From a virus (Duplodnaviria; Caudoviricetes), in the IMG/VR virus record IMGVR_UViG_3300015366_000230, positions 1 through 50,792 of that record: 50,792 bases of DNA; one strand, given 5' to 3'. The notes below the pieces were generated by a model that was given only the letters and a program-made list of their open reading frames with translations, had not been told where the DNA came from and made no database searches. Positions 26,100 to 50,792 of this stretch are shown piece by piece. The position numbers and the translations under genes are program-made. Each line of letters opens with the position of its first letter. The first letter of the stretch is position 1.

Positions 26100-26467
26100 A
26101 GTTTCTCCTAAATATTGACAGATGAGCCGATATTAGCACAAACCCTTAAATATGCAAACTATTAGGGTTTACCCTATAGTTTAAAACTATGGGCTTTTAG
26201 CTTGGGGCTGTTTGACATAATATGTTAGTACATACTAACTTAGTTTTATTTTTTAAAAATTTTTGTAGCCGATTTGCAAAAGACTTTTTTGCATAAATCC
26301 TAGATTAAAAACCCGATTCTTTGTGCTCACCTAAAGTAATGACCCCCTTTTTCGATTTTATATGGCAAAAATCCGCGCCTTATAAACAAAGGGCGGGCGG
26401 GCGATATCGCCTTGAAAGCCCCTAGTTATAAGCCCCCAGCCCCTCGCTGATAGCTTTTAGCTGACGG

Positions 26468-26495
26468 CTTGCGTATAACGTACATTATGTCAATC
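26468..26495 (+). other. dif-like XerC/XerD recombination site
   Basis: CTTGCGTATAA-CGTACA-TTATGTCAATC versus E. coli dif GGTGCGCATAA-TGTATA-TTATGTTAAAT; 11-6-11 architecture. Confidence 0.65.
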
Positions 26496-26601
26496 AATAA
26501 TAGGTTAAATTGTCATTGGAAAACTATTAGCTTAGGTCTATTAGCTAGGGGCTAACGGCTTGAAATTTAAGCCGGAGCGAGGCGGGGACAAAATTTACCT
26601 A

Positions 26602-26720
26602 TTAGCCCCTAGCCCCTAGCTGATAGCTCTAATATTAGCCCCTAGCTCCTAGCTCCCAGCTGATAGCTTTGCTATTTATCAGCTTGATCGAGCTATTTTT
26701 CAGCTATTAGCTAGCAGCTC
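26602..26720. repeat. 7-mer AGC[CT]CCT tandem repeats with GCTGATAGCT units
   Basis: TTAGCCCCTAGCCCCTAGCTGATAGCT and TTAGCCCCTAGCTCCTAGCTCCCAGCTGATAGCT; related copies near 26418, 28832, 29757. Confidence 0.75.
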
Positions 26721-27001
26721 AAAATCACGGATTTTTGCATGGTTTAAAAAATTGTCATTTGGGCAAATTGTCACGCACGAAAAATTGCTCGCCATAAAAA
26801 TATATAAAAACCCTATATATACATTCAGTAAAATTAAAAATTTAAGATAGTATGACAATTTGACCTATAAAAAAGCTCCAAGCTCCTAGCCGTAAACCTT
26901 TGCCGATTGTCACGCCCCCAAAAAAGCGGCTTTATTCATTACCTAAAAAAATGACAATTTCCCGCTATTTTGCAAAAACGCAACAAAATGTAAAATAATT
27001 C

Positions 27002-27030
27002 TTTACGCATGCTTAAAAATTTGAGATACT
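27002..27030 (+). promoter_or_regulatory. sigma70-like early promoter
   Basis: TTTACG-17 nt-GATACT with extended TGn, upstream of the early ORF cluster. Confidence 0.5.
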
Positions 27031-27086
27031 GATTTTGTTGTATCGCAATTTGATAAATGACAATTTAACCTATAAGGGATAAAAAA

Positions 27087-27197
27087 ATGAATAAACAAAA
27101 AATAACATTTTGGGAATTTTTAGGCGCTTGCGTTTTGGGCGCAGTAATCGGGACATTTTCCGCCATTGTTTACATATACGCTACAGGGGGTTTTTAA
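27087..27197 (+). CDS. 36-aa single-TM early peptide (not in the ORF track)
   Basis: MNKQKITFWEFLGACVLGAVIGTFSAIVYIYATGGF*, AAGGGA RBS. Confidence 0.6.
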   Translation: MNKQKITFWEFLGACVLGAVIGTFSAIVYIYATGGF

Positions 27198-41634: not shown

Positions 41635-41861
41635 GTCAAACCAAATTAGGTTCTTTTATTGAGGCATGGGTAAATGTCGCAATTGGCTTTGGTATTAATT
41701 ACATTGCCAATTTGCTGATATTTCCCTTGTTTGGTTTTCACATTACTTTATTGGAAAACTTGTACATGGGTTTGATATATACCGTTATTTCAGTAGTCCG
41801 TAGCTATTGCATTCGCCGTTGGTTTAATGCCCGCATCCATAAGCTGTTAGCTAACGTATGA
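41631..41861 (+). CDS. small two-TM phage protein
   Basis: S.IEA..NV.IG...RSY..RR.FN motif. Confidence 0.7.
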   Translation: MSQTKLGSFIEAWVNVAIGFGINYIANLLIFPLFGFHITLLENLYMGLIYTVISVVRSYCIRRWFNARIHKLLANV

Positions 41862-42001
41862 GCAGTTGGCTAATAGTTCTCACCGGGCTGATTTATCTAT
41901 ACATCAGCATTGAACAGGGGTTTAAAGGCAATCTAGGGATGGCTATTTGTTATTTTGGCTACGCCCTTGGGAATGTTGGGTTTTACATGATGGCTAAGTA
42001 A
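41858..42001 (+). CDS. 47-aa membrane peptide (not in the ORF track)
   Basis: MSSWLIVLTGLIYLYISIEQGFKGNLGMAICYFGYALGNVGFYMMAK*. Confidence 0.6.
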   Translation: MSSWLIVLTGLIYLYISIEQGFKGNLGMAICYFGYALGNVGFYMMAK

Positions 42002-42498
42002 TACCTAAAGGTTGCAAATTGCAACCTTTTTTCATACCTATAAGTACAAAAAAGATACACAAATTTCGGACAACAATGTCACATTTTTGCATGATTTTTT
42101 ATTGAAATTTCATGCACTTATAGGCGTTTTTAAAATAGGTCGTTTATACAATAACAAAGTAATCATTTATACAATAACAAAGTAATCGTTGTAACTTTGA
42201 AACACAACCTACACCCTGTAATTTGCGCAATATATTGAACAAAACACCCCATATAGTTAGGGTTACGCACCACATAAAAAAGTTTCCCGAACGGGAAGAA
42301 TGTAATAAAAAGTAGGCAAAAATAGTAAAAAGTTACCGAACGGGACATTTTGTAAGGAAAAGTAATGTCAACCAAAGTGCGGATAAAACGCATTACATGT
42401 ACAAAATGTCAACGAAAGTGTACATACCCCCAAAACATGTCTACAAAACGGCAAATTCTGTACATATTAAATGACTCATTAATAAGGCTTTAAGCTAT
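42002..42498. repeat. non-coding array of diverse palindromes and short direct repeats
   Basis: 42007-42029 IR; 42088-42116 IR; 22-bp tandem 42143-42187; TTCCCGAACGGGAA 42284-42297; 16-bp DR at 42364/42405. Confidence 0.75.
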
Positions 42499-42930
42499 TT
42501 AAGGACTCTTTAATAAGTCATAAACTTTAACCGGTTCGTGGCTTTTTAAATCCACATTGCAAGCCCATTTAACCGCTTCTTCTGCTGTTAGCCCCATTCT
42601 CATGCAGACTTCTGCCGCCATTGCACCAGAGCCAATAGCCATAAAGGTTCTAACGCGTTCCCATTCTAAATCATCATTACAAGAAAAAAGCCCTTCGGCA
42701 GTTAGCTTTAAGAAAGAGCTGCCAGATTTTAGTTTGGGCTTGGTTTTTTGTTTTTTATTAATGTATTCAACGACTTTTTCGCCATCTGACCAATTGCCAG
42801 CAACGCCAAGCCATCCGTTATCTATTTGAAGAATCTTATCCTCATAATATTTGATTCCCGCATCGTCATCGGAAAACTGGCTATCTGCCACCATTACTTT
42901 ATTAATCCAATCGCCAACGATAGTAGTCAT
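42499..42930 (-). CDS. Ntn-hydrolase/HslV-proteasome-like peptidase (start MTT at 42930)
   Basis: N-terminal Thr, ADSQ, GVAG, AIGSGA..A, AEEAV..A...D. Confidence 0.75.
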   Translation of the reverse strand: MTTIVGDWINKVMVADSQFSDDDAGIKYYEDKILQIDNGWLGVAGNWSDGEKVVEYINKKQKTKPKLKSGSSFLKLTAEGLFSCNDDLEWERVRTFMAIGSGAMAAEVCMRMGLTAEEAVKWACNVDLKSHEPVKVYDLLKSP

Positions 42931-42932
42931 GT

Positions 42933-43916
42933 TTAAACCTTGTTTATACAACCTCTAAACTCGAACTCGCCATTTTGCTCATCGCTGACCATAATCAACT
43001 CTGGCATTAACATTCTACCTTGGTCAAACGACAGCAATACAAAACCCGATCGCCAGTCTTTGGGGGAATCTTCGCAATATTCAAAGGTAGCGCTCATTGG
43101 ATCCGCCAAGCAGCCGGTCTGAACCCCGTAGAAGTTGCCCTGATAGTTACTGATTGGTTGCACCGCTAAGACATGCGTATGCCCCGTAATGATGTTGGTA
43201 TTGCCCGCTGCCAGCAAGTTGCTGTAACCTGCCGTGCGCCCGCCCTTGAACCGGTGTTTGACCACAGTATCCTCACCAATCCAAAAGCTCCAACAGGTTT
43301 CCCATTCAGGAAAGTGATATTTGAGGCTAAAACCGTCTACACCGCTATATTCTGGCACCTTATTGACCAACCAAGATTCGTAACGCATGTCGTGATTGCC
43401 CAGCGTCCAGATTAAACGACAGCCAGCCGGCTTATGTTTAACGATTTGATCTAAATGATAACGGCAAGACTCTAATTCTTGCAGTACCGTAGGCTTGGCG
43501 TCGTAATTAATGGACGGAAAACGGCTCAAAACCTGTCCGTCGAACGCGTCGCCATTGCAGATGATGACTTCTGGCTTGAATTCTTTAATCATCAACAGCA
43601 GGGCTTTAAATGCCGTTGTAGTGGTATCTGTAAAATGGGCGTCTGAAAACACAATAACGCGCTTCACCTTGTCAACGTCTATGCCTCTTCGGACGTTATG
43701 GGGTGCAAGCTCTATCTTTTTAGGTTTTTCTTTTTTGGGATCTCGTAAAGAACCGTGCGTAGGCAATTCGATGTTATGCCGAATTTGAATAGCGGATTTA
43801 CGATTAGATACGCTTCTAGGGTTTATACCTAGTTTTTTTCCTACGAGAGTTGGCGACCCTAGCTTTTTCCAAAGTTTAATAAACTCTTCATCGGAACACA
43901 CAGGCTTAAACGGCAT
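42933..43916 (-). CDS. calcineurin-like metallophosphoesterase with N-terminal HTH-like region
   Basis: SDAH, GDAFD, GNHD, GHTH motifs. Confidence 0.85.
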   Translation of the reverse strand: MPFKPVCSDEEFIKLWKKLGSPTLVGKKLGINPRSVSNRKSAIQIRHNIELPTHGSLRDPKKEKPKKIELAPHNVRRGIDVDKVKRVIVFSDAHFTDTTTTAFKALLLMIKEFKPEVIICNGDAFDGQVLSRFPSINYDAKPTVLQELESCRYHLDQIVKHKPAGCRLIWTLGNHDMRYESWLVNKVPEYSGVDGFSLKYHFPEWETCWSFWIGEDTVVKHRFKGGRTAGYSNLLAAGNTNIITGHTHVLAVQPISNYQGNFYGVQTGCLADPMSATFEYCEDSPKDWRSGFVLLSFDQGRMLMPELIMVSDEQNGEFEFRGCINKV

Positions 43917-50745: not shown

Positions 50746-50792
50746 CTGTCTCTTATACACATCTCCGAGCCCACGAGACGCTACGCTATCTC
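50746..50792 (+). other. Illumina Nextera adapter + i7 index (artefact)
   Basis: CTGTCTCTTATACACATCTCCGAGCCCACGAGAC-GCTACGCT-ATCTC. Confidence 0.97.

Follow-up and report, generated by a model that had tools for sequence, protein, structure and literature searches.

A gene-free array between two phage operons matches DNA upstream of host toxin-antitoxin operons and may serve as a DNA decoy

Convergent genes need no promoter between them, which raises the question of why a tailed phage (Duplodnaviria; Caudoviricetes) keeps a gene-free stretch, crowded with unrelated operator-like motifs, at exactly such a place. The stretch, here called the array, lies at 42002-42498 of IMG/VR record IMGVR_UViG_3300015366_000230, whose 50,792 bases constitute the window analysed. 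An earlier note on this DNA proposed that the array collects binding sites for different host regulators, for example toxin-antitoxin (TA) repressors, and acts as a decoy. Every motif listed there was found at its position, and the array does sit between convergent genes: a 47-aa open reading frame (ORF) on the + strand ends at 42001 and the gene of an HslV-like peptidase on the - strand ends at 42499. One coordinate needs correction, in that the last unit, a double dyad, extends beyond 42498 to 42522, into the final codons of the HslV-like gene. We find that four units of the array match DNA upstream of four host TA or abortive infection (Abi) operons, and that the sequence evidence is most readily explained if operator-bearing DNA from several such operons was captured repeatedly and then kept.

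Set against dinucleotide shuffles, a check that the earlier note had asked of its own proposal, palindromes prove mildly more frequent than expected and direct repeats lie far beyond chance. Four perfect inverted repeats (arms of at least 7 nt, loops of at most 20) were observed against 1.36 +/- 1.31 in the shuffles, 17 of 300 of which attained four, and palindrome density taken alone is only mildly raised. Direct repeats (12-mers recurring within 120 nt) occupy 11 positions against 0.01 in shuffles, a number reached by none of the 300. That the units are real follows from their being kept in related phages and matched in host genomes. Four motifs (those of units D and C, the core of unit 2, and B) were searched for in the 50.8 kb genome, and none occurs elsewhere in it. 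Nor is the array a CRISPR: its repeats are two-copy and mutually unrelated, and regular identical repeats with unique spacers are lacking.

The host genomes searched are species representatives, one per species. BLAST of 42002-42530 against 61 genomes of one genus, that of a genome carrying the hipBA-like double dyad described below, gave matches at E<=1e-3 in 16 (best 4.8e-11). A control region of the window twice as long, 26100-27165, matched 2 of those 61 genomes at the same threshold. The first 199 bases of the array have matches in 31 of 241 genomes of the same genus. Scanning candidate host genomes for each motif and recording the genes downstream, as had been suggested, placed four units upstream of four TA/Abi operons. 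Pfam names rest on a single representative per host protein; the remaining copies were judged by N-terminal sequence.

Unit 2 (42084-42123, - strand) is built on the palindrome TGCATGA-n15-TCATGCA (42088-42116). It is homologous to the leader of a host operon encoding a DUF6088 (AbiEi-like) protein and AbiEii, together with three codons, ATG CAA AAA. Positions 42084-42116 are 100% identical over 33 nt to the leader and start codon of this operon, and matches of 86-100% over 31-40 nt (best 1.8e-11) were found in 21/241 and 9/61 genomes of the genus. The match overlaps the start codon of a 214-aa gene in eight of nine host loci, the ninth being cut by a contig end; both this gene and the AbiEii-like gene are present in seven loci, and one has the first gene only. 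The host copy spans from just past an extended -10 element (TGCTAATAT) through the first three codons, and the two products match DUF6088 (2.2e-8, the 214-aa protein) and AbiEii toxin (2.3e-26). Among 48 distinct related phage arrays, 27 carry unit 2. Inversion has touched this unit in one relative: in L135 (about 1215-1245, D-oriented) the 15-nt spacer between the TGCATGA and TCATGCA arms is reversed relative to window 42088-42116, as if flipped through recombination between the arms.

Unit 1 (42007-42032) comprises a 23-bp palindrome (42007-42029, AAAGGTTGCAA-A-TTGCAACCTTT) and the T run behind it, and is homologous to the operator of a host ParD/ParE-like operon. Host matches of 96-100% over 24 nt occur in 6/241 and 3/61 genomes. 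At all three loci read, the host copy covers a -35-like TTGCAA and lies 37-40 bp upstream of a pair encoding a 72-aa ParD_like protein (Pfam 3e-17) and a 90-aa ParE-like toxin (3.4e-28). Relatives show symmetric changes in the palindrome (GTTCCA...TGGAAC). In the window, unit 1 and its T6 directly follow the stop codon of the + operon, which the unit may also terminate. Just beyond it, 42033-42047 holds CATACCTATAAGTAC, a degenerate copy of the GATACCTATAGGTATC palindrome family that is weak in the window and present as full copies in 12/48 related arrays. The right part of the array of one relative (L094) gave three weak matches among 121 genomes, of which one is informative: at this host locus (L187), three GATACCTATAGGTATC copies stand directly upstream of a helix-turn-helix (HTH, 152 aa) and Fic-like (196 aa) gene pair.

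Unit 3 (42143-42187) consists of two 22-nt iterons with a 23-bp period and the core ACAATAACAAAGTAA; the repeat TTTATACAATAACAAAGTAATC occurs at 42143 and 42166 (two matches, zero expected). Its homologues are iterons upstream of a host gene for a 513-aa protein with a C-terminal Fic domain (Pfam 6.9e-10), and matches were found in six host genomes (G192, G317, G325, G341, G438 and G510). At the four loci read, three to four iterons with a 22-23 bp period lie 60-130 bp upstream of the fic gene. Unit 3 iterons recur in 17/48 related arrays. Iterons at a 23-bp period in AT-rich DNA also recall a replication origin or a packaging site, and further features point that way: some relatives carry three to four TAACTTTACAAT repeats at 22-23 bp, and at least 8 of 61 viral contigs that contain the D1 dyad of unit D terminate about 70-230 bp from that unit. 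We consider an origin or packaging site highly improbable. The window iterons are those of the host fic gene; only 23 bp are left at this place in one syntenic relative (L064), and others have 110-129 bp of unrelated sequence there, which is unexpected for an essential origin; the array is not conserved in all relatives and no initiator was identified. The terminase genes adjoin the other non-coding region, 26100-27165, and contig ends near a hypervariable region are expected from assembly.

Unit D (42466-42522) is a pair of 16-bp near-palindromes, D1 (42473-42488) and D2 (42504-42519), set 31 bp apart, and is homologous to a double dyad upstream of host hipBA-like operons. D2 falls within the last codons of the HslV-like gene. 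When the species-representative genomes were scanned for D1, one match was to a 2-kb phage fragment that had been binned with a metagenome-assembled genome (MAG) labelled 'uncultured beta proteobacterium'; the two other D1 matches, of three in genome contigs, had only the 21-mer in common, at chance level, and were set aside. Another contig of the same MAG carries two 16-bp palindromes 31 bp apart, a spacing equal to that of D1 and D2, located 72-118 bp upstream of an HTH gene that is followed by a HipA-like kinase gene (Pfam HipA_C 1.9e-44). The left half of the MAG site is identical to the phage D1 region at 23 of 25 positions. A pattern search recovered the host double dyad in 7 of 301 genomes of the family, each of about 2-3 Mb, with none for the reversed-pattern control, and also in 6 of the 61 genus genomes. 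In all seven loci read, the double dyad adjoins, on the upstream side, a promoter-like site (TTGACC-17-TATATT) of an HTH and HipA_C operon.

All four host copies thus have the promoter-adjacent position and the dyad or iteron architecture of TA operators, and the geometry is kept between phage and host, with 31 bp between D1 and D2 and 22-23 bp from one iteron to the next. The phage retains these sites without TA genes and, for units 1 and D, without a promoter: the -10 and -35 elements beside the host copies of these two units are missing. Ten host proteins (both members of the ParDE-like, AbiE-like, HipBA-like and HTH/Fic pairs, the large Fic protein and a capsid-like neighbour) were compared by tblastn with the window and 141 related phage loci (595,987 nt), and nothing was found at E<=0.01. 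No conserved ORF lies downstream of the sites either, so they stand without a regulated gene. The idea that the array gathers binding sites of different host regulators held in part. Four of about nine units match DNA upstream of ParDE-like, DUF6088-AbiEii, Fic and HipBA-like operons, while units X and C have no host match and the two CCCGAACGGG hairpins look like terminators.

The direction of copying could in principle be the reverse, with the sites bound by phage-encoded factors and copied by host TA operons on satellite-like islands to sense infection. A capsid-like gene adjoins hipBA-like and fic loci in three host loci, and a contig that bears a P4-type primase fragment (L186) has B-like units, both of which would suit such islands. 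We regard this as very unlikely, since the host sites stand where four different TA families are classically autoregulated, the phage copies precede no genes and are confined to this one place in the phage genome, and the right-hand flanks of the host HTH/HipA loci vary from genome to genome. The capsid-like gene itself encodes 348-353 aa and has no Pfam match (L151, 1885-2946; L174 and L175, 1072-2118); it was judged capsid-like from its sequence, and its place beside these TA modules suggests that they lie on a satellite-like or cryptic-phage island.

Comparison of related phages, also proposed in the earlier note, showed that units are gained, lost and rearranged at the syntenic locus. The HslV-like protein has 171 relatives in viral contigs, and 80 loci were kept, of which 19 contain parts of the non-coding stretch as separate blocks in differing combinations. 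Overall, units recur in reordered form in more than 60 related viral contigs. The block order is A-X-B-C-D in the window and A-B-D-C in two relatives (L051 and L047), where unit C lies on the opposite side of unit D. D1 is found about 6.5 kb from the HslV-like gene in some contigs, and the array is accordingly independent of that gene. The units are real, conserved and mobile, being gained, lost and reordered among the 48 distinct related arrays.

Such turnover could also reflect a recombination hot spot at operon ends, where host TA loci or ancestral TA 'moron' cassettes were whittled down to neutral scars with no function beyond termination. This account, which we consider unlikely, would fit the variable length of the spacer (from 23 to 1245 bp across the 27 loci that share the convergent gene pair, with extra small genes in the longer ones), the first three host codons carried by unit 2, as expected of DNA capture, the fusion of D2 to the end of the HslV-like gene and the varying order of C and D. 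It would, however, require four unrelated TA families each to have left the operator-bearing piece alone, with no coding remnant in 596 kb of related phage DNA. D1, searched for by exact pattern, also persists nearly unchanged across 61 viral contigs, in 43-48 distinct surroundings. D2 played no part in that pattern and is nonetheless there in 38 of 43 distinct contexts, and the least conserved part is the spacer that separates the two dyads. In the L098-type variant the inner sequence has been replaced, and yet the outer half-sites still span 52 nt, equal to the host. As a separate observation, which concerns the window (42499-42521) and L116, L119 and L123, D2 is merged into the 3' end of the HslV-like gene, giving the protein tail YDLLKSP*; in L119, what ends in the same D2-encoded tail is one - strand reading frame flanking D2. 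The arrangement looks like recombination within the dyad.

The reading that we favour, to which we give an even chance, is that the array is a modular, gene-free library of captured host TA operators serving as DNA decoys. The identity of the units to host sites is plain in the alignments, and from it we infer titration. Antitoxins such as ParD, HipB and others similar to them are autoregulators, and operator-bound higher-order HipBA complexes have been reported to keep HipA inactive. On this model, the phage would have captured the autoregulatory sites (palindromes, double dyad and iterons) of at least four host TA/Abi operons, and as its DNA multiplies these sites would bind the antitoxin, the repressor or the toxin-antitoxin complex. 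Chromosomal operons would then be derepressed, which would maintain the supply of labile antitoxin, or toxin-antitoxin complexes would be held on DNA; by either route the defences would stay untriggered during infection. The two hairpins and the first palindrome would close both operons and leave units 1-3 in a transcription-free pocket. A wider version, which we put somewhat below even, is that lytic freshwater phages maintain an evolvable operator library that disarms several TA/Abi systems by titration, with units swapped in step with the local host TA repertoire. The unmatched elements (C, X, and the TAACTTTACAAT and TGTCAAC...GGTAAATA repeats of related arrays) would then be operators of further defence regulators.

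Several points weigh against the decoy reading. Unit 1 is a good hairpin with a T run, and its 24-nt match could partly reflect a shared terminator-like palindrome. Phage D departs from positions conserved in the host (ATTAAT for ATAAAT; GGC for GTC in D1), and D2 is identical to the host site at about 17 of 23 positions; with such differences, phage D may be recognised by a variant protein, or by no protein at all. The 3' untranslated part of the late operon, which is not a quiet zone, contains units D and C. The sign of the effect is uncertain, since loss of antitoxin to titration might, in principle, release the toxin. For units X and C, and likewise for the TAACTTTACAAT iterons found in relatives, the search, restricted to species-representative genomes, gave no host counterpart. 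Such missing counterparts say little, because each species is represented by one genome and TA modules vary between strains. The model presumes that the sites are bound and that these particular TA systems act against phages. The host, too, is deduced, on the basis of the matches together with a single 2-kb phage fragment that was binned with a MAG of that genus. It is likely to be one genus of small-genome freshwater betaproteobacteria, and Polynucleobacter would fit genomes of about 1-3 Mb, a locus GC of 0.39-0.47 and a freshwater origin.

The middle of the array bears on a further explanation, that the sites are used in cis. Here TTCCCGAACGGGAA occurs at 42284, with a variant at 42333, forming two hairpins 49 bp apart in back-to-back orientation. 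B1 (42276-42301, - strand), a TTCCC-GAAC-GGGAA hairpin with a T run, is the probable terminator of the long (late) - operon. B2 (42332-42357, + strand), a variant hairpin followed by CATTTTGTAAG, is a probable terminator for + transcription. Each was found in 22/48 related arrays. We collected 78 distinct units with a CC-GG hairpin-like core from 49 distinct arrays (the 48 related ones and the window). Most contain CCCGA[AT]CGGG, and these fall into type 1, AAAAAGTTTCCCGAACGGGAAGAAT, with its T run on the - strand, and type 2, ATTCCCGAACGGGGYATTTTGTAAG, with its T run on the + strand. B1 was called on the - strand of the window, and the orientation of B2 is taken from the 78 collected units. 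B1, B2 and unit 1 each combine a GC-rich hairpin with a T run at an operon end, as intrinsic terminators do, and the two hairpins are probably back-to-back terminators of the convergent operons. The B stems covary weakly, their sequence being itself conserved, which leaves the terminator reading probable and short of proven.

Host antitoxins bound at such a site could form a roadblock or an insulator that separates the convergent operons, or could sense the TA state and thereby control a short phage transcript. The array does sit at the collision point of two operons, with terminator-like hairpins, and a -10-like TATAAG (TGTAAG in relatives), directed leftwards, is kept beside unit 2. Some relatives' arrays also precede genes or adjoin a small RNA gene. 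We nevertheless consider use in cis quite unlikely. No sigma-70-like promoter inside the window's array passes even lenient criteria (the sigma-70 scan gave none and a lenient scan three weak candidates only), no conserved ORF or Rfam RNA lies downstream, and the arrangement would rely on accessory host proteins found in about 2-9% of species genomes. Early readings of the array as an origin, as small RNA genes or as empty promoter/terminator cassettes were dropped as main explanations after the host matches appeared.

That the stretch encodes a protein or a single structured RNA, an outcome that would have told against binding sites, is extremely improbable. ORFs of 32-76 aa can be drawn inside it, but these look spurious and none is conserved in relatives, the order of units varies between phages, and Rfam gave no match at the gathering threshold anywhere in the window. 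The best sub-threshold Rfam score was 20.7 bits for GcvB against a threshold of 42, and such weak matches are at chance level. A tRNA scan of the array found none.

AbiEi is known to repress its own operon through inverted repeats around the promoter and +1 (IR1 and IR2 in PabiE; PMC3985639). Autoregulatory TA operators of this type are palindromes, dyads or iterons placed at -35, at +1 or just upstream, and the phage units are close sequence matches to such sites in the host genus. They differ from them in standing alone, with several families side by side, without a TA gene and mostly without a promoter. Operators of the ParD, HipB and Fic systems are further examples of the class. The nearest known case is pseudo-ToxI, or captured toxI, of Pectobacterium phage PhiTE, in which a phage copy of the non-protein part of a host TA/Abi system reportedly allows escape, and the repeats are said to expand and to be exchanged with the host. 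Pseudo-ToxI is an antitoxin RNA that acts on the toxin, whereas here a DNA operator would act on a DNA-binding antitoxin or complex, and several systems would be covered. The host matches of the array lie upstream of type II/IV protein TA operons; those of a type III antitoxin-RNA mimic would be expected in RNA antitoxin repeats next to a ToxN-like gene, which is not where they were found.

Natural clusters of binding sites that sequester a regulator, the more strongly the more copies there are, include datA (for DnaA) and the P1 incA iterons. Those titrate the replicon's own regulator, whereas the sites described here would belong to host defence regulators. T4 Dmd and T7 Gp4.5 are phage proteins that bind toxin or inhibit Lon; they would share with the array the goal of silent TA-based abortive infection, and act as proteins without DNA sites. 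The PeSL cassettes of T4-type phages are mobile promoter/stem-loop elements, early promoters that flank small genes. Like the array, they are short non-coding regulatory modules shuffled among related phages at hyperplastic regions, but they consist of phage early promoters and not of copies of host operators. The portions of the literature accessible to our search contain no description of phage-borne TA operator arrays.

If the sites bind host antitoxins, the array would be a counter-defence without a gene product, the DNA dose of which grows with phage replication. Decoy function would also explain why part of the 'junk' that separates phage operons is there, provide a sequence-only link from uncultured phages to their hosts and to the defence systems they face, and make operator arrays a natural probe of TA triggering in infection. 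At a minimum, the data describe a new kind of sequence sharing between phage and host, in which operator DNA of four TA families appears to have been captured repeatedly and retained.

The two units without a host counterpart lie in the centre and right of the array. Unit X (42188-42271) contains GTTGT-n11-ACAAC and TGTAATTTGCGCAATATATTGAACAA and is common to three relatives (L057, L118 and L135); its pattern occurs in none of the 61 genus genomes. Unit C (42359-42465) comprises two copies of AATGTCAACSAAAGTG, ATGTACA/TGTACAT and ATGTCTACAAAACGGCAAAT, its repeats reading AATGTCAAC[C/G]AAAGTG at 42364 and 42405, and is present in 10-12 of the 48 related arrays. Searched together, X, B and C matched only phage-like contigs of one genome (G001), along with weak matches within genes, among 241 genus genomes, and nothing among 297 family genomes, a scan that left four genomes unscored. 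Mobile-element contigs of the host genus (L186 and L185) have B-like units as well. In L185 (G454:C12), a LexA-box-like TACTGTATATCCGTACAGTA stands immediately left of this unit and precedes a 459-aa gene, and across the hairpin unit from it is a 136-aa gene of PemK/MazF-like type.

Related loci contain two further elements that are absent from the window. Of 20 related loci scanned, 7 (L089, L094, L101, L102, L108, L120 and L135) have the Betaproteobacteria-1 RNA (RF02932, 76-109 bits) next to the array, at about 240 bp from unit D, and it is directed towards the array in both loci that were oriented (L089 and L108); a literature search on this RNA found nothing relevant. A conserved 40-54-aa ORF (MFDFEKPYKQYEEL...EFW.NS...IKEFF) lies between the 47-aa gene and unit 1 in many relatives, L003, L047 and L051 among them.

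The record is rated complete by CheckV and classed as linear, and PHROG matches of its proteins identify a myovirus. Terminase, portal, head, sheath, baseplate and tail-fibre genes are on the - strand, and a replication block encodes primase, family-A polymerase, exonuclease and helicase. The + operon starts at about 37.2 kb and closes with the 47-aa ORF (41858-42001), which is kept in relatives. The only match in the phage database is 131 bp at 74% nucleotide identity to the 47-aa gene of Methylophilaceae phage P19250A. The - operon closes with endolysin, a DksA-like zinc finger, metallophosphoesterase and finally the HslV-like peptidase gene (42499-42951; phrog_1040, 1.2e-27), and the array is the junction of these two operons. 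The GC content of the array is 0.318, against about 0.36-0.55 elsewhere in the window. A Nextera-type adapter string (CTGTCTCTTATACACATCT...) is present among the last bases of the record (50748-50781), and the contig end falls within a glycine-rich - strand gene, indicating that the record ends are assembly ends and not genome ends. The second, larger non-coding region (1066 nt, 26100-27165) separates the terminase operon from a + operon. It contains about eight copies of TGACAATTT / AAATTGTCA and runs of TAGCCCCTAGC-like repeats, and is probably an early control or packaging region.

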